This document shows, piece after piece, positions 7,905 to 32,649 of a stretch of 64,000 nucleotides of DNA (position 1 is the stretch's first letter; each line of letters starts with the position of its first letter). The notes under the pieces were generated by a model, which was not told the origin of the DNA, did no database searches, and saw only the letters and a program-made list of their open reading frames with translations. The stretch lies in the IMG/VR virus record IMGVR_UViG_3300048854_000081, positions 256,001 through 320,000 of that record; one strand, 5' to 3'. Origin of the DNA: a virus (lineage: Duplodnaviria > Caudoviricetes). Made by a program: the position numbers and the translations under genes.

Positions 7905-8365
7905 TGGCTACAGAACGTAAATTTGACATATTCAAAATCATTGAAGACAAAATCAATAAACTTGATATAGCGTTCTTCGACAAGCTTGAACCATACGAAA
8001 TTCGTCAGATTTACCCTTTGATCATTATGAAATGGGTTTCGGGTGGCAAGAATGCCACCCAAATCAAACTAACGAATGATCTGGTGAACACAGTATGCTT
8101 CCAGCTTTACAATCACCCTAAGCTTCTGTACAAGCTATTGATGGCAACCTCAACGGGCAAGTCTCGCCCAGTTTGGGTCAAGCGTCCATCGAAAGCTAAA
8201 GAATCTTCAACTATCAATATCATCAAGGAATTCCATAACTGTTCCACGGAGCAGGCTTCAGACTATTTGAAATTATTCAGTAATGATGATATTCTAGAAA
8301 TGGCTGAACGATTGGGTTCGGACAAAGAGACAGTTACTAAATTGAAGAAAGAATTAAATGGATAA
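7904..8365 (+). CDS. clamp loader small subunit (gp62-like)
   Basis: YPLIIMKWVS...IIKEFHNCSTEQASDYLKLFS pattern; near the gp44-like gene. Confidence 0.6.
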   Translation: MATERKFDIFKIIEDKINKLDIAFFDKLEPYEIRQIYPLIIMKWVSGGKNATQIKLTNDLVNTVCFQLYNHPKLLYKLLMATSTGKSRPVWVKRPSKAKESSTINIIKEFHNCSTEQASDYLKLFSNDDILEMAERLGSDKETVTKLKKELNG

Positions 8366-9035
8366 GATTTTAAAGTGTGATTTTTGCGATAAGGTTTTCA
8401 AAAGGGAAAACAATTATTTAAAGCATAAGTGTGAGAAGATGAAGCGATACGATATCTTCAAAACACCAGTAGGTCACCTTGCTTATCTAACCTTCAATCA
8501 ATGGAGAAAGATTTCAGGCCATCCACCAATTACCGTTGAAGTATTCACGAAATCACGATACTTCAATGCCTTTGTGAAGTTTGCAGAATTTGCTAGAAGT
8601 CGAGCTATCCCTGATAAGATTGGCTACATTGCACTGATGGTGGAGAAGCAGTTACTACCATTCAACTGGTGTGACTATGAGGTTTACGACTATTTTATTA
8701 AGACATTCGATACCGAATACAGCATTGATCAGAAAGTAGACCTCTCTGTTGAGACTATCGTAGATATAGCAAGAAAGTACGAGTGTGAGACGGCTCAGAT
8801 ATTTGAGAATATCCAACCACTTCAAGTGCTGAAATACATTACATCACGAAAGCTTTCTCCGTGGTTATTGCTTGCAAGCAATAAATTCATCGAATTCATG
8901 ATGTATAAGACTGACAAGGAACAGCGAATGCTATTCAATCAGTTTGTCAATGTCAGCGAATGGAAGAAGTATTTTATGGAGAATCCGGATAAAGTCACAG
9001 AAATTAAGAACATCAATCAACAATTAGGAATCTGA
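8358..9035 (+). CDS. hypothetical protein with N-terminal zinc-finger-like motif
   Basis: CDFC...KHKC. Confidence 0.65.
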   Translation: MDKILKCDFCDKVFKRENNYLKHKCEKMKRYDIFKTPVGHLAYLTFNQWRKISGHPPITVEVFTKSRYFNAFVKFAEFARSRAIPDKIGYIALMVEKQLLPFNWCDYEVYDYFIKTFDTEYSIDQKVDLSVETIVDIARKYECETAQIFENIQPLQVLKYITSRKLSPWLLLASNKFIEFMMYKTDKEQRMLFNQFVNVSEWKKYFMENPDKVTEIKNINQQLGI

Positions 9036-24015: not shown

Positions 24016-24576
24016 ATGGGTACTGTCAATCATAAAGCCATACTAAATGCCAAGAACATCACCGTAAAGAATGGCTTTGCCTTCTTTTGGGGAAGCCCGT
24101 TCTCCCAGTGGTATAAGTCACCATTTACCATGGCTGGCGCTACCTTTGAGACTGCCGAGCATTACATGATGTACGGCAAGGCCACGATCTTCGGTGACGC
24201 TAAGATTGCCAAGGACATCCTCAGGACTAAAGACCCCAAGAAGGTCAAAGCATTGGGTAAGCAAGTCGGTGGGTTCCTTGAGAACACGTGGAACCTACAC
24301 AAGTACAATGTTGTGTACTCAGGTAACATTGAAAAATTTAAACAGAATAAAGAGTTGGCCTATTTGCTAATTTTGTCTGGTGATTTAGAGCTTGTTGAAG
24401 CCAGTCCCTACGACAAGATTTGGGGTATTGGTATGGGTGTAGATAATCCTAACATTACCGACAAGAGTAAGTGGCAAGGCGAAAATTTACTTGGTAAGGT
24501 ACTGATGGATGTTCGCAAGTACCTTATTGAACATTGGGATGGTGGAGTATCAGATTATGGATTCAGTAAAGACTAA
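24016..24576 (+). CDS. NADAR/YbiA family N-glycosidase
   Basis: FSQWY, TAEHYMM, KFKQN, LVEASPYDKIWGIG and GENLLGKVLM motifs. Confidence 0.92.
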   Translation: MGTVNHKAILNAKNITVKNGFAFFWGSPFSQWYKSPFTMAGATFETAEHYMMYGKATIFGDAKIAKDILRTKDPKKVKALGKQVGGFLENTWNLHKYNVVYSGNIEKFKQNKELAYLLILSGDLELVEASPYDKIWGIGMGVDNPNITDKSKWQGENLLGKVLMDVRKYLIEHWDGGVSDYGFSKD

Positions 24577-25137: not shown

Positions 25138-25194
25138 TTGACACACAATTGAAACCAGCTACAATTAGCGCACACTATCACATAGGAGTTATGG
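25138..25194 (+). promoter_or_regulatory. sigma70-type promoter plus conserved leader CACATAGGAGTTATGG
   Basis: TTGACA-N16-TACAAT; the 16-mer is repeated exactly at 27113-27128. Confidence 0.65.
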
Positions 25195-26393
25195 ATATGA
25201 GCAAGAAAAATGATACATCACTGGCAATCACGTCAGACAGTTCCCTTACCATTAGCGGTAATGTAAATATTACTGTTAATAAAAAGTATACACACGGTGT
25301 GTACATCGGAAGGTTTCAGCCCTTCCACCTCGGCCACCTCCACCTCGTGGAGCATGCGCTCAATCTAGCTGAGAAGCTTATTATTGTTGTCGGCTCACAC
25401 AACAAACCCCGCGACTGGAAGAACCCTTGGACATCGGCTGAACGCATTGACATGATCAAGGCGTCGTTGACTGATGAACAGCGCGAACGTGTCTACTTCC
25501 AGACCGTTGAAGATCGTCTTTATACTAATAAAGAATGGCAGGCTTCGATCTATGAAGCCGTCGATGCCGTGCTCCTTCAGTATTCTAAGTATAGAATTAA
25601 GAGCAACGCTGAAGGTGGCACCGCAAAGATTTGTCTTGTAGGTTTTAATAAGGATGATTCTAGCTCGTATCAGAAGTGGTTCCCTGAGTTTGCACTTGAG
25701 GAAGCACCCATGTACAATATGGAAGAAGGCGATGACGTGTTGAGCGCTACCATGCTCCGTGAAATGGTTTACGAAAACCATGTCGGATCAATGCGTTCCC
25801 ACGTTCCCGCTGGTGCCTTTGCTTTTATTAAGGAATGGCTGAAGACCGAAAATGCCCAGTATGTGAAGGACTGGTATGTGCATGAGGGTGAGTATCAGAA
25901 ACCTTATGAAACTCTTCCATACGGTACCAACTTTTACACGGCAGATTCAGTAGTCTTTCAGGGTAACCATGTCCTGATGGGTAAGCGTAAGTTTCATCCG
26001 GGTAAGGGTCTATGGGCACTTCCGGGTGGTCACGTCAACAAGAATGAACTTGCACTGGAAGCCTCTGTTCGCGAACTTTACGAAGAGACCAAGCTTAAGG
26101 TTCCTGAAAAGGTTCTGCTGGGTAGCTTCATCGGTGAAAAGCTTTTTGATCATCCAGACCGTTCGCTCCGTGGACGTTTGGGTAAGAAGGTCGGTCGCAC
26201 TGTATCGATTTCACATTGCTTCGAACTGAGTGATGAAGCGGGCATTCCACGCACTACACCGGCTGACGATCTTGAGGAAACGTGGTTCTTCACGATTTCT
26301 GAAATCCGTGCCATGCGTAACGAAATTTTCGAAGACCATGCTGACCAGATCGAATACTGGATTCCGCGCCTTAATGATAAGAAATACCGCTGA
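25191..26393 (+). CDS. nadM: bifunctional NMN adenylyltransferase / ADP-ribose Nudix hydrolase (NadM-Nudix)
   Basis: GRFQPFHLGH, LSATMLR, Nudix box GGHV...RELYEET, FEDH. Confidence 0.93.
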   Translation: MDMSKKNDTSLAITSDSSLTISGNVNITVNKKYTHGVYIGRFQPFHLGHLHLVEHALNLAEKLIIVVGSHNKPRDWKNPWTSAERIDMIKASLTDEQRERVYFQTVEDRLYTNKEWQASIYEAVDAVLLQYSKYRIKSNAEGGTAKICLVGFNKDDSSSYQKWFPEFALEEAPMYNMEEGDDVLSATMLREMVYENHVGSMRSHVPAGAFAFIKEWLKTENAQYVKDWYVHEGEYQKPYETLPYGTNFYTADSVVFQGNHVLMGKRKFHPGKGLWALPGGHVNKNELALEASVRELYEETKLKVPEKVLLGSFIGEKLFDHPDRSLRGRLGKKVGRTVSISHCFELSDEAGIPRTTPADDLEETWFFTISEIRAMRNEIFEDHADQIEYWIPRLNDKKYR

Positions 26394-26650: not shown

Positions 26651-27061
26651 ATGTTTCATATAGATTATAAACTTGACAAGGATAGCCATAATGGAATTGG
26701 ACTTTTTGTAACTCAAAATGTCCTTGAAGGTGACATCGTAGTTGACTATGATGAAGAATGGGTAAGAGTCATTTACCTTGAAACGCTTGAACAGATGTCG
26801 TCTATAACCAGAAAGAGCATTTTGAAACATGCTTATGATGGTGCAGCCCATGCTAAGTATGGTCTACCGGAAGGTTACATATACTTTGATCTTGACGATT
26901 GTAGGTTTCTGAATCATTCGGATAATCCATCGATTGCTTTTGATTATGAAGATGAGAAGTATAAGGCCACAAGAGATTTGATCATCGGCGATGAACTAAC
27001 GATGGATTATCGAGAGTTCTGCACAGTAGGAAAGTATTGCGCGGACTTTCTTTCGGATTGA
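26651..27061 (+). CDS. SET-domain protein (putative lysine methyltransferase)
   Basis: GIGLF, RFLNHSDNP and ATRDL..GDELTMDY signature motifs. Confidence 0.88.
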   Translation: MFHIDYKLDKDSHNGIGLFVTQNVLEGDIVVDYDEEWVRVIYLETLEQMSSITRKSILKHAYDGAAHAKYGLPEGYIYFDLDDCRFLNHSDNPSIAFDYEDEKYKATRDLIIGDELTMDYREFCTVGKYCADFLSD

Positions 27062-27128
27062 CAAAACAGATTTAACACGTATAATACAAAACTTAATCAA
27101 CAAATTGACTGACACATAGGAGTTATGG
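27058..27128 (+). promoter_or_regulatory. sigma70-type promoter plus conserved leader
   Basis: TTGACA-N16-TATAAT; CACATAGGAGTTATGG. Confidence 0.65.
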
Positions 27129-28543
27129 TCATGAATAACAAAATTAAACTAAACCCGATTCTCACCGCCGACAGTTACAAGATGTCGCATTGGCTTCAGT
27201 ATCCCGCCAAGACCACTGATGTATTCAGTTACATCGAATCACGCGGTTGTGGCTTCACCAATGAACTGATGTTCTTTGGTCTACAGGCTTATCTTCGTGA
27301 ATACCTGAGCCAGCGCATCACCATGGAAGACGTGGAGTTTGCTAAGACTCTCGCGGAGGCTCATGGCGAGCCGTTCAACTATGACGGCTGGAAGTACATC
27401 GTTGATCGTTACGATGGTCTCCTTCCCCTTACTATCAAGGCCGCAAAGGAAGGTGCAGTGATTCCCCTGCACAATGCTATCCTTACTGTTCACACCAGCG
27501 ACGCCAAGCTATTCTGGCTTCCGTCGTATGTCGAAACTGCCCTGCTTCGTGCCATTTGGTATCCTTCGACGGTTGCCACCCTTTCGTATACCTGCAAGAA
27601 GATTATGCACAAGTATCTTCTTGAAACCTCGGATCAGACCGATAGCCTGAACTTCATGCTTCATGACTTCGGCGCTCGTGGTGTAAGCAGTTCGGAAAGC
27701 GCAACGCTTGGCGGCATGGCTCACATCGTCAACTTCATGGGTACCGATACGGTCGAAGCTATCGTTGGTACGATGAATTATTACGATGCTCCTACGGTTT
27801 GTGCCTTCTCGATTCCTGCGGCTGAGCATTCGACCATTACTAGCTGGGAACGTGCAAACGAATTCGAAGCTTATTCGAATATGGTTGACCAGTACGCCAA
27901 GAAGGATAAGATTTTCGCGGTCGTATCGGACAGTTACGATATCTACAACGCAGTCGAGAACATGTGGAGCAAGGGTGGCTTGTTTGCCCGCGTCAAGGCT
28001 GCTGGATCGCGCGTGGTGATCCGTCCGGATTCAGGTGATGCTACGCAGGTACCAGTGAAGCTCGTTGAGCTTATCGCTGAACTGGAAGGCTTTACGATCA
28101 ATAGTAAGGGTTACAAGGTTCTTCCGGATTACGTTCGTGTCATTCAGGGTGATGGCATCACAATTGATACGATTCCGGTTATTCTGGAAAACCTCAAGGC
28201 TGCTGGCTTCAGCGCTGAAAACCTGAACTTCGGTATGGGTGGTGGTTTGCTACAGCACGTTAACCGTGATACCTTCAAGTTCGCGCAGAAGTGCTCGGCT
28301 GCTCTGGTTGATGGTAAGTGGCGTGAAGTATTCAAAGACCCTATTGATGACAAGGGTAAGGTATCGAAAAGGGGGCGTATCAGTTTGATCAAGGATGATC
28401 AGGGTAATTATCAGACTATTCGTTTGGAAGACCCACTTGAACGCAAGGAAGAACTTGATATTGTTTTCAAGAACGGACAGATCATCAAAGAGACCACATT
28501 CGATGAAGTCCGTAAGCGTGCAAACGAATATTTTGTAAAGTAA
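27125..28543 (+). CDS. nadV: nicotinamide phosphoribosyltransferase (Nampt/NadV)
   Basis: DSYKMSH, LHDFGARG, PAAEHS, VSDSYD, IRPDSGD, IQGDG, GMGGGLLQ. Confidence 0.93.
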   Translation: MVMNNKIKLNPILTADSYKMSHWLQYPAKTTDVFSYIESRGCGFTNELMFFGLQAYLREYLSQRITMEDVEFAKTLAEAHGEPFNYDGWKYIVDRYDGLLPLTIKAAKEGAVIPLHNAILTVHTSDAKLFWLPSYVETALLRAIWYPSTVATLSYTCKKIMHKYLLETSDQTDSLNFMLHDFGARGVSSSESATLGGMAHIVNFMGTDTVEAIVGTMNYYDAPTVCAFSIPAAEHSTITSWERANEFEAYSNMVDQYAKKDKIFAVVSDSYDIYNAVENMWSKGGLFARVKAAGSRVVIRPDSGDATQVPVKLVELIAELEGFTINSKGYKVLPDYVRVIQGDGITIDTIPVILENLKAAGFSAENLNFGMGGGLLQHVNRDTFKFAQKCSAALVDGKWREVFKDPIDDKGKVSKRGRISLIKDDQGNYQTIRLEDPLERKEELDIVFKNGQIIKETTFDEVRKRANEYFVK

Positions 28544-28554
28544 GGAAACCCTCT

Positions 28555-29151
28555 ATGGTCATGGAAGAGTTTATTTTGAGAGCGCATACCGATAAAGGTA
28601 TGCGCTTAATCGAAAAGATCGAAGACTTGATTACCAAAGAACTGAAGGTTGATGTAAGTATCATCGATCACAGAACCTATAATCCTTCAGAATTTGGGGT
28701 TACAGAATGGAGAAAGAAGTTCAAGACGATTATATCTCTTGACAAACATCTTGCTGAGTTCTTTGGTGTCGATTACTTTCAGATTTCAAGAATCTTCAAA
28801 GATAATGGTGATGTTCACTCACGGAGATTGGGTGGATACGATGGCTATAGAACGTATCCGTACAATGGATATCACATCATCGATACCGATATGGTTCATG
28901 GTGACTCAATCAATTTAGCTTGTAAGATTTTTGCTACGCATTCGTTTAACGTTCCTATCCTAGTCGAGGAAGGTCAAGACCTGATCGATATGGAAGATTT
29001 GTTTATGGATAACTCACTTCTGAAGACAGATAGTGGAATTATTGGTTGCAACTATCTTTTAAATCGTGAGTTCTTTACTAAGAGAACTTCCCTTCCAGAA
29101 TTTATGTACGACCCCATCAGAGAGATTATCATCCATGCAAACTCTAATTGA
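28555..29151 (+). CDS. divergent phosphoribosyltransferase-like protein
   Basis: YHIIDTDMVHGDSI resembles the type I PRTase PRPP-binding loop (hhhhDDhhxTGxT). Confidence 0.5.
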   Translation: MVMEEFILRAHTDKGMRLIEKIEDLITKELKVDVSIIDHRTYNPSEFGVTEWRKKFKTIISLDKHLAEFFGVDYFQISRIFKDNGDVHSRRLGGYDGYRTYPYNGYHIIDTDMVHGDSINLACKIFATHSFNVPILVEEGQDLIDMEDLFMDNSLLKTDSGIIGCNYLLNREFFTKRTSLPEFMYDPIREIIIHANSN

Positions 29152-29995
29152 ACAGATTCGTAAATGGTTTGATGAAAACAATCTCGATCATGCAGTGATT
29201 GGTTATTCTGGTGGTATCGACTCGGCCACGACTGCCGCTCTGATCCATCGTGCTGAAATTCCTATCACTCTTGTGCAGGTATGCCTAGAGAATCATACAC
29301 TATCATCCAGAACCATTATGATGGATTTCTTAGGTGATATTGAATACGCATACCGTGAAGGCATAGACAGTCCGTATACCCGCTGGGAATTCATTAGAAT
29401 GCCGGACATTTCCTATCTACGGGATGCTGGTAAGGAAGCTGCCCTTCCGATCATTCGCAATGCCTATTTTTACGGCGTAGCCGCAGACCTTCGTGATGAC
29501 AACAAGCGTCCGGTCGTAGTTGGTACTATCAACTTTGATGAGGCTGCTTATCTAGGATTTTGGGGAAAGGCATCCGATGGTGCTCAGGATTTCTATCCTA
29601 TCAGTCATCTTCACAAGTCAGAAGTCTATGCACTTGCTAAGGAGCTTGGTGTTCCTCAAGAGATTATCGATGCCGTACCATCAGGTGATCTACAATACTC
29701 AGGTGACCTAAACGATTATAAAATGATCGGTGCGACTTACGATCAGATTGAAGGACTCGCTAAGTTTGTTGATTCGCCTAAGGTAAAGACTGTAATCCAA
29801 ATTATGGAATTTATTGAGAACAACATTGATGATCCACTCAAGTTTGTAAAAAATATCAATAGAAATTCATTCAAGTATAATCAGCCATTCCCTAACGTTC
29901 ATGTTAATGGTAAACTTGAATTATTTCGTAAGAGAGCATATCCCACCATCATGATTGCTGCCTCAAATTATGAATTCTTGTCCAATTTATTGTAA
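29135..29995 (+). CDS. nadE: NH3-dependent NAD synthetase (NadE-like)
   Basis: GYSGGIDS PP-loop, VVGTINFDE, GFWGKASDG, PISHLHKSEV, GATYD. Confidence 0.85.
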   Translation: MQTLIEQIRKWFDENNLDHAVIGYSGGIDSATTAALIHRAEIPITLVQVCLENHTLSSRTIMMDFLGDIEYAYREGIDSPYTRWEFIRMPDISYLRDAGKEAALPIIRNAYFYGVAADLRDDNKRPVVVGTINFDEAAYLGFWGKASDGAQDFYPISHLHKSEVYALAKELGVPQEIIDAVPSGDLQYSGDLNDYKMIGATYDQIEGLAKFVDSPKVKTVIQIMEFIENNIDDPLKFVKNINRNSFKYNQPFPNVHVNGKLELFRKRAYPTIMIAASNYEFLSNLL

Positions 29996-30306
29996 AAGGC
30001 AACAATCTTCAACATTTCATCTAATGTTGCGTCAGATTTAAGTCGATTAGCTCTGTAGGATATGACAATCATATTGTCGAGAGAATATCCCTTGGATGAA
30101 TCAATTCGATCAAAGCTGATCGAATCATCCTCTACTTTGGTACGATGGAAGTGTAATGGTATCCCAAGGATGGGACAGGTGATAGGAATACCAATCTCAT
30201 CGATGTCCGATGGCAGTAACGTAAATGGAATACCACGCTTTGTTGCAGACGCCTTTAGCTGATTCCATATATCTTTGAAATCTCTTTGGGTAAGATGTAA
30301 ATTCAT
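29968..30306 (-). mobile_element. free-standing HNH-type homing endonuclease, antisense
   Basis: CPILGIPL...SFDRIDSSKGY..DN.IVIS..AN..K. Confidence 0.75.
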
Positions 30307-30340
30307 AACTATGGTCGTTTATCATAGTTATATATGCCAC

Positions 30341-30368
30341 TTGACTTTCAATGAAAATGGTGGATAAT
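30341..30368 (+). promoter_or_regulatory. sigma70-type promoter
   Basis: TTGACT-N16-GATAAT. Confidence 0.55.
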
Positions 30369-30397
30369 GATGCAATACATTTCACCTGAGACAAATC

Positions 30398-31189
30398 ATG
30401 CATGACGTAAATCTTTACACTGGAAGCAACCCGAAGCCGGAATGGAATCCGAATATTGATTATGTGAAGAAGACCTTCATGTTCGATACGAGGCACGTCA
30501 TTTCGCATTTCTCTGAGTATCCGGTTTACACACTGGACAATGCGTTTCCTGAAGATATCTGTAATCACTTGATTGCCGAGTTCGAAAAGCAGGATCACTA
30601 TGCTGTCGGTGTGGATGGTTACGCTAATGCAGCCGAGCATACCGGCTCTTATAGAGCGATGGCATGGAGTGAATCCGTCGCCAATCAGGTCTCTGAAAGA
30701 CTTCATAAGATTATTGATGAGAACTCATTTGACGGTGGTCTTGATGGGTTGGTTCATCTTAGCGATCTTTCAATTCTCTACACACCATTCAGACCCGTGT
30801 TAGAGGCTGAGTACGATATGATTGGTTCTACACCATGGCTTCGCTTTATGAAGTATGGTCAGGGTGGTAAGCACACTCCACATTATGATGCCCCATTCCA
30901 TAATGAAGATGAACGATACATTACGTTGTACTCATGGGTTCTCTATCTAAACACACCAGAAGGTGAAGGTGGAAATTTCCAGTTTGTGGCTGATGGTCAG
31001 GAAGATGTACACCCACTAGATCAAAATCTTAATGATTGGGATCACATGAGTGAGACATCCGTTCTAGATATCAAGCCGGAGCGTGGGAAGCTTCTTGTGT
31101 TCCCACATTGGCTATGCCATCAGGTGCAAGAGTATCTTGGTAACGATCATCGTTATATCATCCGTGGAGACGTAGCTTTTGGATACTGA
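30398..31189 (+). CDS. 2OG-Fe(II) dioxygenase (prolyl-hydroxylase-like)
   Basis: RFMKY...PHYD, LYLN..EGG, VFPH..CHQV, terminal RYIIRGD. Confidence 0.85.
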   Translation: MHDVNLYTGSNPKPEWNPNIDYVKKTFMFDTRHVISHFSEYPVYTLDNAFPEDICNHLIAEFEKQDHYAVGVDGYANAAEHTGSYRAMAWSESVANQVSERLHKIIDENSFDGGLDGLVHLSDLSILYTPFRPVLEAEYDMIGSTPWLRFMKYGQGGKHTPHYDAPFHNEDERYITLYSWVLYLNTPEGEGGNFQFVADGQEDVHPLDQNLNDWDHMSETSVLDIKPERGKLLVFPHWLCHQVQEYLGNDHRYIIRGDVAFGY

Positions 31190-31865
31190 ATTGATGTGTG
31201 ACGAGCCGTGGTATCAAGAACTTGAGCGTAAGTACGGATATGAATTCTGTGCTACGGCTGGATACTTCATGGAATTCAAGCCATGGGCTCACTCATATCG
31301 TAAACATTTTAAGCTTGACGAATTGGAGCCTGTCGATGCAGTCATACAGTACTCAGGTGCATTTCATCCGATCCATTATGGGCATGTTGAATGTTTTCAT
31401 AATGCCATCAATCAGGTAGTTGTTTGGACGAATGCACAGAGTGGCTACGTATTTTTACACATTGATCATAGTGACTATCGTGATTCTAAGGGATACTGTT
31501 CCGATGAAGTGTTCAAGGAACGCATAGCTGACGTGGTAGAGAACTTCGAATATAAGAATTTTAAGATTATTCCTATCTTCGACGATGCTATGCCTGACAA
31601 TTGTTCACGTAACTTCACTAGACTGTATACTGAGTTATCTAAAGTTTTTAGACACGTATATTTCGTGTGTGGTGGTGATCGTGCAAACTATGCATTAACC
31701 TTTATGGATAAAGGTAAAGTTATTGTATCTGGAAGACAGTCATCACCAACATATGAAAGTTACAAACATTTAATGAATGATAGAATCTGGTTTATCGGTG
31801 GTAACAATTCATCATCTTCTACGGATATCCGTTCACAACTTAACAAAGAGCAATCACATGACTGA
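31179..31865 (+). CDS. HIGH-family nucleotidyltransferase (NadD/cytidylyltransferase-like)
   Basis: SGAFHPIHYGH, FVCGGD, SSTDIR; start may be ATG 31194. Confidence 0.8.
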   Translation: MDTELMCDEPWYQELERKYGYEFCATAGYFMEFKPWAHSYRKHFKLDELEPVDAVIQYSGAFHPIHYGHVECFHNAINQVVVWTNAQSGYVFLHIDHSDYRDSKGYCSDEVFKERIADVVENFEYKNFKIIPIFDDAMPDNCSRNFTRLYTELSKVFRHVYFVCGGDRANYALTFMDKGKVIVSGRQSSPTYESYKHLMNDRIWFIGGNNSSSSTDIRSQLNKEQSHD

Positions 31866-32649
31866 CATTATTACTGCAAACGACATCGAAGTTGAAATTA
31901 ATACCTCGGCTGTCGAGCCTGCACAGTACTTCAAGATTCTGAAGGGCAAGACTCAGGATGCAACCAGCGAACGTCTTAGCGACCAGCTTAAGACGGTTTC
32001 CGCACAGATCATTGCTGCGAATCGCGTCGGCCAGAAATCATTTTTAGAGAAGCTTGCATTTACTCATAGCGTGATCGTCAAGGAACAGATGCTTCTTGCT
32101 AACGGTATTTCCAAGTTTGTTTACAAGGATGACATCAAGCAATTCTTGGATAAGGTCCAACCTGTAAATTCGATCAAGATTATTGAACTGGAACGCTATC
32201 CGCGTGCCATCCCTCTTGATGTTCTCAATAAGCTGGATGCAGTCAAGCAACTAGGTATCTTCGATGAATTTTGTGTGGTCTTCACTGACCTTACCGATTC
32301 TACTTACGAAACTGCGGATGAAAAGGAATTCGTAAAGCGCAACCGCGATCCTATCGTGTTCGGGTTCTTTAAGGAAGAAAAGACTTCATTGAAGCATGAC
32401 CGTTTCTACTTCGTTGTGGATTGGGAAGATGAACATTGTGATCTTACCTTTACCAAAATGATTGAGAAGATGGCCGAACTGGATATGAAGAATGTAGAGA
32501 AGGAGATTGGAGTCGATCCAGCCTACCTACAGGAAATCGTAGATAACACTCTTGCTTCGATGGGTAAGCGTCACATGTCAAGTTTACAGCAGTCGGAAGG
32601 CAGTGTGGAGAAGCCTAAGTCTTGGTTTAAGCGTATCTTCGGAAAATGA
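31858..32649 (+). CDS. hypothetical protein
   Basis: Long ORF with phage-like codon use; start taken at ATG 31858. Confidence 0.7.
   Translation: MTDIITANDIEVEINTSAVEPAQYFKILKGKTQDATSERLSDQLKTVSAQIIAANRVGQKSFLEKLAFTHSVIVKEQMLLANGISKFVYKDDIKQFLDKVQPVNSIKIIELERYPRAIPLDVLNKLDAVKQLGIFDEFCVVFTDLTDSTYETADEKEFVKRNRDPIVFGFFKEEKTSLKHDRFYFVVDWEDEHCDLTFTKMIEKMAELDMKNVEKEIGVDPAYLQEIVDNTLASMGKRHMSSLQQSEGSVEKPKSWFKRIFGK

Follow-up and report, generated by a model that had tools for sequence, protein, structure and literature searches.

A giant (jumbo) phage carries, beside a known two-gene NAD salvage pair, four further enzyme genes encoding a phosphoribosyltransferase (PRTase)-like protein, a NadE-like synthetase, a 2-oxoglutarate (2OG)-Fe(II) oxygenase and a nucleotidyltransferase (NTase). 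As judged from sequence, fusions that tie all four together elsewhere make them one pathway that is separate from NARP2, the pathway formed by the salvage pair. We regard it as an evenly balanced possibility that this cassette is a self-contained assembly line for a pyridine dinucleotide, similar to the Preiss-Handler pathway but with an obligatory oxidative step. Its product is most likely NAD or a near relative of it. The analysis established gene content, co-occurrence, fusions and folds, whereas all of the substrates and products and the counter-defence role discussed below are inferred.

The NAD island of the phage

The window, which is the entire 64,000-nucleotide stretch of phage DNA that was analysed, contains the features listed in Table 1. 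A preliminary description reported four co-oriented enzyme genes after nadV with an antisense HNH gene between them, and the open reading frames are located as it proposed. It also recognized a pair formed by Nampt and NadM-Nudix. The NadV protein indeed matches NF006629 with 619 bits (cut-off 405) and phrog_448 (E 3e-159), and contains PF04095 and PF18127. The NadM-Nudix protein scores 271 bits with the bifunctional NMNAT/Nudix model NF003786, under its equivalog cut-off of 397. NARP2 is composed of Nampt/NadV and NMNAT-Nudix/NatV (Osterman et al., bioRxiv 10.1101/2024.02.11.579819), a combination that is supplied by these two upstream genes and not by the cassette. No PncB-type (NAPRTase family) gene was found in the island, whose sole PF04095 gene is the Nampt-type nadV. 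The NADAR-family protein is 50-52% identical to the products of NADAR genes located 5' of nadM in loci L003, L007 and L010.

Table 1. Features of the NAD island, in window coordinates
Feature	Position	Strand	Remarks
NADAR-family gene	24016..24576	+	TIGR02464, 167 bits; context only, outside the cassette
Promoter-like site before nadM-Nudix	25138-25165		11/12 positions match consensus
nadM-Nudix	25191..26393	+	PF01467 and PF00293
Sigma-70 promoter 5' of nadV	27058..27085	+	Perfect consensus TTGACA-16 nt-TATAAT; 12/12 positions
nadV (nicotinamide phosphoribosyltransferase, Nampt)	27125..28543	+	First half of NARP2
Cassette gene 1	28555..29151	+	198-aa type-I-PRTase-like protein; unnamed, mostly viral family
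Cassette gene 2	29135..29995	+	Single-domain NadE-family (NH3-type) PP-loop synthetase
HNH gene between cassette genes 2 and 3	29968..30306	-	Free-standing HNH-type homing endonuclease; phrog_3322 endonuclease, E 7e-31
Sigma-70-like promoter, 3' of HNH and 5' of oxygenase gene	30341..30368	+	TTGACT-16 nt-GATAAT; 10/12; consensus match only
Cassette gene 3	30398..31189	+	P4H-like 2OG-Fe(II) oxygenase; PF13640, PF13759
Cassette gene 4	31194..31865	+	223-aa HIGH nucleotidyltransferase with NadD/NMNAT-type motifs

Gene 1 starts 11 nt past the nadV stop codon, and no terminator-like sites were found from the perfect-consensus promoter through the end of the NadE-like gene. The nadV gene is probably co-transcribed with cassette genes 1 and 2. 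The antisense HNH gene is a mobile insertion. Its product shares 77-82% identity with the HNH proteins that L003, L007 and L010 encode at this position, against 45-62% for the flanking genes, and in L005 there is no HNH gene and the NadE and 2OG genes are 8 nt apart. Other mobile or non-conserved genes of the region are a SET-domain gene and a phrog_10081 gene.

The four cassette enzymes

The 198-aa protein encoded by gene 1 had been described as PRTase-like on the basis of a loop, and model comparison points to a type-I PRTase-like fold. Its AlphaFold model (pLDDT 93) retrieves PRTases or PRPP synthetases as 11 of the 13 best Foldseek matches (best E 1.7e-3) and as the top 18 matches in VIA (Z 5.8-7.2, 78-141 residues aligned), although these scores are middling and similarity of this size may reflect merely a shared arrangement. 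The model aligns with a xanthine PRTase cluster of the Atlas with TM values of 0.46/0.57. Sequence searches detected no Pfam, NCBIfam or PHROG family and no PRTase model at E <= 0.01, which includes the type I PRTase model (PF00156), and a search of solved structures with the family profile yielded no PRTase at E <= 10. The protein is also unrelated to PF04095. Its family has 39 representatives in 1.84 billion proteins, nearly all of 180-236 aa, with invariant residues that include S78, R79, F81, D110, D112, E147, D148, T178 and S179. The conserved loop I-I-D110-T-D112-x-x-x-G116-x-T/S, with its invariant D-x-D...G-x-T/S, resembles the phosphoribosyl-binding type.

The open reading frame of the NadE-like protein opens at GTG 29066, and the likely start, ATG 29135, yields 286 aa and overlaps the end of gene 1 (its stop codon) by 17 nt. 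The protein has the PP-loop motif SGGIDS and matches PF02540 over model positions 3-242 of 242 (86.3 bits, cut-off 21) and TIGR00552 above its cut-off (81 versus 63.65 bits), and thus belongs to the NAD synthetase family. It scores below the equivalog cut-offs for NaAD-amidating NAD+ synthases (91 versus 255 bits for NF010587; 59 versus 250 for NF001979), and its sequence does not discriminate between NaAD and NaMN as the substrate. Domain-model searches found no glutaminase domain, in agreement with its earlier designation as NH3-dependent. Among solved structures, the Francisella NMN synthetase 3FIU is its best-scoring relative (E 8e-16), ahead of NadE proteins from archaea and bacteria; the difference between 3FIU (61.8 bits) and an ordinary short NadE (57.7 bits) is a small margin that carries no information on substrate preference. 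Matches to QueC, LarE and GuaA are weak and confined to the PP-loop.

The product of gene 3 is confirmed as a P4H-like 2OG-Fe(II) oxygenase by its matches to PF13640 (43.9 bits, cut-off 27) and PF13759 (34 bits), and by the presence of the HxD...H iron triad, a 2OG-binding basic residue and a double-stranded beta-helix. Residues H162-x-D164, H237, H241 and R252 are invariant, as are R86, R149 and R256. The nearest solved folds to its model (pLDDT 94) are prolyl 4-hydroxylases (E 1.6e-8, TM 0.45-0.49).

The transferase reading frame spans 31179-31865, and its likely start, ATG 31194, gives a protein of 223 aa (P0001) that begins 4 nt past the oxygenase stop codon. Its assignment as a second HIGH adenylyltransferase holds at the level of motifs: GAFHPIHYGH and SSTDIR correspond to the NadD/NMNAT signatures GxFxPxHxGH and ISSTxIR. 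Model scores do not extend it to NadD, since its sole family-level signal, TIGR00482, reaches 23.6 bits, far under the cut-off of 112.45. Among 35 family members, G60, F62, P64, H66, G68, H69, S213, S214 and R218 are invariant, and the invariant motifs are G-A-F-x-P-x-H-x-G-H, SRNFTR, GGDRAN and SS-x-x-x-R. PF01467 is reported for the relatives P0010 and P0035 and unreported for the window protein. The family profile matches NadR, NMNAT, NadD and PPAT structures only near HxGH (best E 0.004).

Co-occurrence and fusion of the cassette genes

Eight further loci contain all four genes; one lies on a contig of Burkholderia stagnalis, the other seven on viral or metagenomic contigs. Every unfused locus recovered with the 198-aa, transferase or oxygenase families has the complete set (L003/L004, L005/L006, L007-L011, L012 and L013; L007-L011 are phage contigs of 57-517 kb). 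Two arrangements exist, 198-NadE-2OG-NTase and NadE-2OG-NTase-198, and the gene borders often overlap or nearly abut. Because the encoded proteins are only 32-62% identical to those of the window, the cassette is old and conserved. Phage ME3 has oxygenase, 198-like and NadE-like genes, with no transferase detected and no NAPRTase-family gene in its complete genome.

Two recovered loci, one of phage X1 and one of an alphaproteobacterial metagenome-assembled genome (MAG), have the fused form only. In Xanthomonas phage X1, CDS L001:4713-5828 joins a transferase (E 7e-15) to a 198-like domain (E 2e-4, motifs kept). L014 holds two fusions in one genome, a 590-aa protein (NadE + 2OG) and a 580-aa protein (NTase + 198-like). 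The earlier suggestion that the PRTase-like and HIGH proteins may be fused elsewhere is therefore correct, and the second-nearest structural match of the 198-aa model (TM 0.53) is a 755-member ESM Atlas cluster with PF01467 in 78% of its members. Fusions of NadE and oxygenase form at least 11 protein clusters; because of this, the oxygenase is a pathway member and not a passenger. Two of these clusters, P0151 and P0155, unite all four domains in the order NadE-2OG-NTase-198. Chains with all four domains are 1142 and 1212 aa long, and a fusion of this kind is found in some bacteria.

The cassette adjoins nadV, nadM and NADAR genes in the window, L003, L007 and L010, nadV and nadM in X1, and a macro-domain gene in ME3. 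Neighbours of these kinds occur in five distinct phage lineages. No nadV or nadM was found within 8-10 kb of the cassette in L005, L008, L009, L011, L012, L013 or L014. The preliminary description had proposed a separate pathway, and these loci, together with the co-occurrence, the PRTase-like fold and the fusions, support that proposal. The 517-kb phage G001 encodes, in addition to the cassette, a PncB-like protein (NF003704, 372 bits) and a PncA-like protein. In the MAG that contains L012, a canonical NadD (175 bits) and a long NadE are encoded as well. The cassette is therefore accessory, a status equally compatible with distinct substrates and with simple boosting.

A proposed pathway and its relation to known systems

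In the proposed pathway, the 198-aa protein would form a mononucleotide from PRPP and a carboxyl-bearing pyridine base, for which the simplest candidate is nicotinate. A host nicotinamidase could supply nicotinate from NADase-released nicotinamide. The NadD-like transferase would use ATP to adenylylate the mononucleotide, and the NadE-family enzyme would amidate the carboxylate with ATP and NH3. Its substrate would be the dinucleotide, as for classical NadE, or the mononucleotide, as for Francisella NMN synthetase. The 2OG oxygenase would act beside the NadE step, perhaps by preparing the substrate, tailoring the product or supplying nitrogen. Because nadV and the PRTase-like and NadE-like genes stand behind one consensus early promoter, NAD+ would be rebuilt during infection through both amidated and deamidated routes, for example once Thoeris, SIR2 or TIR-type defences have depleted it. 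A link to NAD is supported by the TIGR00552 score of the NadE-like protein and its nearest solved relatives, which are NAD and NMN synthetases, by the NadD/NMNAT motifs of the transferase, by the gene neighbours, and by the fold and loop of the 198-aa protein.

Classical conversion of nicotinate to NAD requires no oxidation, and so a Preiss-Handler-like scheme leaves the invariably linked oxygenase unexplained. In G001, which already has a PncB-like gene, another nicotinate PRTase would be superfluous. The missing PRTase sequence match and the middling fold scores of the 198-aa protein, the low NadD score of the transferase and the lack of a detectable transferase in ME3 also count against such a scheme. 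We tentatively suggest, with somewhat less than even confidence, a new pyridine-dinucleotide route in which the oxidative step, here by the 2OG oxygenase, is chemically required. It would lead from a previously unnoticed precursor to NAD+ or yield an oxidised NAD analogue with which phages and mobile elements survive or weaken NAD+-targeting immunity, and the 198-aa protein would represent a new class of pyridine-base phosphoribosyltransferase.

It is extremely improbable that the four genes have nothing to do with one another and just lie side by side in a variable jumbo-phage region. The HNH, SET-domain and phrog_10081 genes suit this reading, but it is refuted by the fusions, and the genes co-occur in all recovered loci, in two orders and fused in pairs or all together. 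A product that is a modified NAD analogue instead of NAD+ is rather unlikely. In this reading, the oxygenase would hydroxylate or otherwise oxidise the base, mononucleotide or dinucleotide. The analogue might be an NADase-resistant cofactor, an inhibitor or decoy of NADase effectors, or a substrate of a phage ADP-ribosyltransferase. The oxygenase is obligatory and fused to NadE, and its extra invariant arginines (R86, R149 and R256) would suit an anionic small-molecule substrate. Moreover, the cassette retains its own transferase and amidating enzyme where canonical NadD and NadE, or PncB and NadM, are present, as expected if standard enzymes reject the intermediates. However, phages frequently duplicate host enzymes merely to raise flux, the oxygenase is closest in fold to protein prolyl hydroxylases and not to nucleotide oxygenases, and the literature searched revealed no such analogue from phages.

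If the product is ordinary NAD+, the oxygenase could serve as a nitrogen supply, converting an amino compound through an imine to NH3 at the synthetase in place of a glutaminase domain. The absence of that domain and the constant, directly fused partnership with NadE agree with this purely inferential idea. Nevertheless, it is improbable: free ammonia is the normal nitrogen source of single-domain NadE enzymes, the placement of NadE at the N-terminus and of the oxygenase at the C-terminus is unlike the order in glutamine-dependent NadE, and we know of no ammonia-releasing P4H-like oxygenase that partners an amidotransferase. Equally doubtful is a pathway outside pyridine metabolism, toward another carboxylated base nucleotide (deazapurine-, imidazole- or pyrimidine-type), a compound resembling nucleoside antibiotics or a precursor for RNA modification. 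PP-loop enzymes amidate many substrates, the weak QueC, LarE and GuaA matches fit this range, the 198-aa and transferase families are far from characterised enzymes, and around several cassette loci there is no further NAD gene. Yet the NadE-family match is full length and exceeds the NCBIfam cut-off for the NadE domain, whereas QueC, LarE and GuaA match at the PP-loop only, the transferase motifs are of NadD/NMNAT type, and nadV, nadM, NADAR or macro genes recur as neighbours.

The proposed pyridine-dinucleotide pathway shares with the Preiss-Handler pathway (PncB, NadD, NadE) the logic of base plus PRPP, adenylylation and ATP-dependent amidation, and both contain a NadE-family enzyme and a HIGH transferase with NadD-type motifs. 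In contrast, the cassette has no PncB, which is a type-II PRTase, but an unrelated type-I-like domain in its place; its transferase is under the NadD cut-off, and the 2OG oxygenase, absent from the classical pathway, is an integral fourth component. Clusters of pncB, nadD and nadE have been reported in jumbo phages (PMC11662467). Like NARP2, the cassette would be a phage-encoded NAD+ synthesis module, and the two share one island in the window phage, but NARP2 is a two-gene amidated route that does not need NadE. The cassette occurs without NARP2 in L005, L009, L011, L012, L013 and L014 and, in the form with no detectable transferase, in ME3. In Francisella, NaMN is converted to NMN by NMN synthetase (NadE*, PDB 3FIU) and then processed by NadM (Sorci et al. 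2009, as cited in PMC3376133). The phage NadE-like protein has 3FIU as its best solved sequence relative, and a NadM-type enzyme is encoded nearby, but the Francisella route has neither an oxygenase nor a PRTase-like partner. NARP1 consists of Adps, a PRPP-synthetase-like enzyme, and Namat, and NARP3 of PnuC and NadR (PMC13464706). Both reconstitute NAD+ for phages, as the cassette would; NARP1 makes use of a PRPP-synthetase/PRTase-type fold, as the cassette probably does, and NadR resembles the X1 fusion in coupling NMNAT to a mononucleotide-supplying enzyme. However, the cassette has no homologue of Adps, Namat, PnuC or NadR, and NARP1 and NARP3 have no NadE enzyme and no oxygenase. The four-gene cassette is not described in the literature searched on NARP1-3 and on the jumbo-phage pncB-nadD-nadE clusters.

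Depletion of NAD+ is a major bacterial strategy against phages, and NARP1-3, three phage pathways for NAD+ reconstitution, were described within the past few years. The cassette genes are few, small and soluble-looking, and therefore direct reconstitution is feasible. The cassette would be a fourth, differently built NAD+ module, distributed across jumbo phages, sporadic in bacteria and sometimes contained in one four-domain protein. The chemistry of its minimal PRTase-like domain and NadE-locked oxygenase could reveal a new entry to NAD+ synthesis or a new NAD analogue.

Setting of the cassette and its neighboring genes

The window spans bases 256001-320000 of one virus record, 350,036 bp long, from a phage with ~42% G+C. 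The major capsid protein of this phage is of the T4 Gp23 type and shares 66-68% identity with its counterparts in Xanthomonas phages XacN1 and Xoo-sp13 and Stenotrophomonas phages CM1 and RAS14. On the basis of this capsid, the virus is a distant T4-like jumbo phage.

An ORF map and three HMM libraries bore out the gene list of the preliminary description. Four co-oriented genes, termed here the cassette, directly follow nadV (see table). The most likely start codon of the NadE-like gene overlaps the preceding stop codon by 17 nt. Transcription of the NAD genes looks early and dependent on host RNA polymerase. The layout in which a NADAR-family gene precedes nadM is also kept in three comparison loci (L003, L007, and L010). 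None of the related loci examined contains a counterpart of the SET-domain gene. The same is true of the gene that follows the transferase gene and matches a "transposase" family, which was therefore left out of the cassette.

Features of the NAD gene island in the window
Feature	Position	Strand	Remarks
NADAR-family gene	24016-24576		Upstream of nadM; TIGR02464, 167 bits
Predicted promoter before nadM	25138-25165		11/12 consensus positions
nadM-Nudix	25191-26393		
Stand-alone SET-domain gene	26651-27061		Between nadM and nadV; PF00856, E 4e-8
Predicted promoter before nadV	27058-27085		Perfect sigma-70 consensus: TTGACA, 16 nt, TATAAT
nadV	27125-28543		619 bits
198-aa PRTase-like gene (cassette gene 1)	28555-29151		Starts 11 nt past nadV; in no named family
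NadE-like gene (cassette gene 2)	Likely start ATG 29135		286 aa; SGGIDS loop
Antisense HNH-type endonuclease gene	29968-30306	minus	Between genes 2 and 3; phrog_3322
Promoter-like site	30341-30368		Downstream of endonuclease gene
2OG-Fe(II) oxygenase gene (cassette gene 3)	30398-31189		PF13640 and PF13759
HIGH nucleotidyltransferase gene (cassette gene 4)	31194-31865		223 aa; GAFHPIHYGH and SSTDIR motifs
"Transposase" match	31858-32649		Overlaps transferase stop codon; phrog_10081, E 7e-46

Recurrence and fusion of the four genes

Comparison loci were fetched via different cassette members. The transferase led to L003/L004 and L005/L006. The 198-aa family led to five IMG/VR contigs of 76-517 kb (L007-L011) and to L012, a contig from a Pseudobdellovibrionaceae MAG that was the sole match among 185,579 prokaryotic species genomes. 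The oxygenase led to L013, a Burkholderia stagnalis contig with ordinary bacterial genes on its flanks, and to L014, from an alphaproteobacterial MAG. All four cassette genes are present in every fetched locus except L014, where they occur only as fused domains. Thus, the co-occurrence that the preliminary description had named as a check on its proposal of a separate pathway is present across loci from three search routes. The encoded proteins are 32-62% identical to those of the window, and 4-nt overlaps between cassette genes are frequent. Two gene orders were observed: 198-aa, NadE, (HNH), oxygenase, transferase (order A), and NadE, oxygenase, transferase, 198-aa (order B).

The nadV and nadM genes adjoin the cassette in L003, L007, L010, and a Xanthomonas phage (X1), and neither lies within 8-10 kb of it in L005, L008, L009, L011, L012, L013, or L014. 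In Acinetobacter phage ME3, the oxygenase gene, a 198-like gene (profile E 3e-11), and a NadE-like gene reside beside a macro-domain gene; the transferase was undetected, and the complete ME3 genome carries no NAPRTase-family gene anywhere. A Pfam scan of ten flanking proteins from X1, ME3, L008, L009, and L011 revealed no fifth conserved component.

Neither megablast with the whole region nor tblastn with the 198-aa and 228-aa proteins yielded a match among 50,697 phage records; it was the oxygenase and NadE that led to X1 and ME3. Apart from these two, the cassette in the window's form is therefore absent from cultured phages or too diverged in them. NadE-like genes of cyanophages and pelagiphages share 25-31% identity and have methyltransferase or carbamoyltransferase genes as neighbors; they were left out of the cassette counts.

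HNH genes occupy the same NadE/oxygenase junction in L003, L007, and L010 and are 77-82% identical to the window's copy, whereas the NadE-like and oxygenase genes flanking them are only 45-62% identical. In L005, these two genes are 8 nt apart, with no HNH gene. On this comparison, the HNH gene between cassette genes 2 and 3 is an insertion, and it behaves as a putative free-standing, site-specific homing element that targets the cassette.

The preliminary description had also suggested that the PRTase-like and HIGH proteins may be fused elsewhere, and two such two-domain proteins were found. One is a 371-aa CDS of X1, in which a transferase domain (residues 9-179, E 7e-15) is joined to a 198-like domain (E 2e-4) that begins at residue 198 with the N-terminal motif of the family and retains S-R-x-F and D-S-D-I-x-T-G-T-T. 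It is followed by the oxygenase and NadE genes; two unknown genes then precede nadM, and another separates nadM from nadV. The other is a 580-aa protein of L014, comprising transferase (20-265) and a 198-like core (381-437), whose 590-aa neighbor comprises NadE (36-289) and oxygenase (413-584). A search for longer NadE-like relatives produced 11 clusters in which the cassette oxygenase domain follows NadE (profile E 1e-43 to 8e-17). In two of them, P0151 (1142 aa) and P0155 (1212 aa), a single protein carries all four: NadE and oxygenase domains followed by transferase and 198-like domains, as in gene order B. Another locus, L017, carries a two-gene bacterial form surrounded by housekeeping genes. 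The fusions pair the PRTase-like domain with the transferase and NadE with the oxygenase, and they settle that the four activities act together.

Predicted properties of the four proteins

Searched exhaustively with HMMER, 1.84 billion representatives yielded only 39 relatives of the 198-aa protein, the clear ones nearly all stand-alone and 180-236 aa long. One hit, P0070 (687 aa), proved to be a protein of Calx-beta repeats and was set aside as spurious. Invariant in the family alignment are S78, R79, F81, G85, E147-D148, and R-T-S at 177-179, and the family loop reads I-I-D-T-D-x-V-x-G-x-T. The family profile gave only noise against solved structures by sequence. An AlphaFold2 model built from the family alignment (pLDDT 93) has type-I PRTases and PRPP synthetases as 11 of its 13 best Foldseek matches, with weak scores (best E 1.7e-3, TM 0.28-0.48), and the same enzymes fill the top 18 rows of a second, independent all-against-all structural search (Z 5.8-7.2). 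In the ESM Atlas, a xanthine PRTase cluster matches at TM 0.46/0.57. Closer than this is a 755-member cluster (488 aa) in which 78% of the proteins have a cytidylyltransferase-like domain and about half are viral. The closest match to the model (md068005d14ad) lies within a cluster of 611-aa proteins from CPR bacteria (TM 0.79 over 191 residues) that also carry a HAD Hydrolase_3 domain, and this additional fusion partner may point to a phosphatase step. These comparisons agree with the PRTase-like fold first proposed for this protein, though scores this size could also stem from a shared arrangement alone. We conclude that it is a divergent phosphoribosyl-binding domain of the PRT type, with putative PRTase activity on a presumed base substrate.

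The NadE-like protein covers PF02540 end to end and scores above the TIGR00552 cut-off; the HMM libraries detected no glutaminase domain in it. Its closest solved relatives are short NadE enzymes and 3FIU, the Francisella NMN synthetase (PMC10607449, PMC12143786).

The oxygenase has 69 relatives, almost all from phage-like contigs, in which the iron triad, the 2OG-binding arginine, and three more arginines are invariant. Searches by sequence against solved structures gave only noise. The folds nearest to its model (pLDDT 94) are prolyl 4-hydroxylases (E 1.6e-8, TM ~0.45-0.49), with the small-molecule oxygenases PolD, HygX, and MysH ranked below them, and the fold gives no substrate assignment. 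L014 has a second, stand-alone oxygenase of the cassette type (8001-8840; 42% identical to the window's), divergently transcribed from its two fusion genes.

The transferase has 34 metagenomic relatives of 205-326 aa, some on contigs of 187-295 kb, with HxGH, SSxxxR, SRNFTR, and GGDRAN invariant. The family profile matches structures of NadR, archaeal NMNAT, NadD, and PPAT only around HxGH (best E 0.004), and TIGR00482 (NadD) scores 23.6 bits on the transferase versus a cut-off of 112. With its motifs present and this score below the cut-off, the protein is classed as NadD/NMNAT-like by motif but outside NadD by the curated test. Complex prediction for the transferase and the 198-aa protein returned a score of 0.00 and gave no answer.

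Possible functions of the cassette

The cassette is not described in accounts of the phage NAD+ reconstitution pathways NARP1 and NARP2 (bioRxiv 10.1101/2024.02.11.579819) or NARP3 (PMC13464706), or in a survey of jumbo phages in which pncB-nadD-nadE clusters are reported (PMC11662467). None of the words NadD, nicotinic acid, deamid-, and oxygenase occurs in the text by Osterman (10.1101/2024.02.11.579819). NARP3 was rejected as the identity of the cassette because it consists of PnuC and NadR. The cassette therefore appears to be undescribed in this literature.

The link to NAD is drawn from the NadE-family assignment, the NadD/NMNAT motifs, and the recurrence of nadV, nadM, NADAR, or macro genes as neighbors of the cassette in separate phage lineages; a substrate other than a pyridine seems improbable. 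The simplest chemistry would be a Preiss-Handler-like line with NAD+ as its product, optionally in the Francisella order, with NaMN amidated first and adenylylated second. An assembly line that produces NAD+ is our best reading, and we give it only about an even chance because three observations speak against a plain Preiss-Handler duplicate. The oxygenase is obligatory in the cassette, and nicotinate-to-NAD chemistry needs no oxidation. Also, a complete 517-kb phage genome (G001) has adjacent genes (L018; G001:C1:308500-312000) for a nicotinamidase resembling PncA, a nicotinate PRTase resembling PncB (NF003704, 372 bits), and NadM-Nudix, ~20-40 kb from its own cassette copy. Finally, the MAG that contains L012 also has a canonical NadD and a long NadE. 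That the cassette product is instead an NAD analogue is a less likely alternative, and a role for the oxygenase in supplying ammonia would be a rather remote prospect.

The cassette is real and conserved, and its architecture is established. By analogy with NARP1-3, its biologic role may be in counter-defence.
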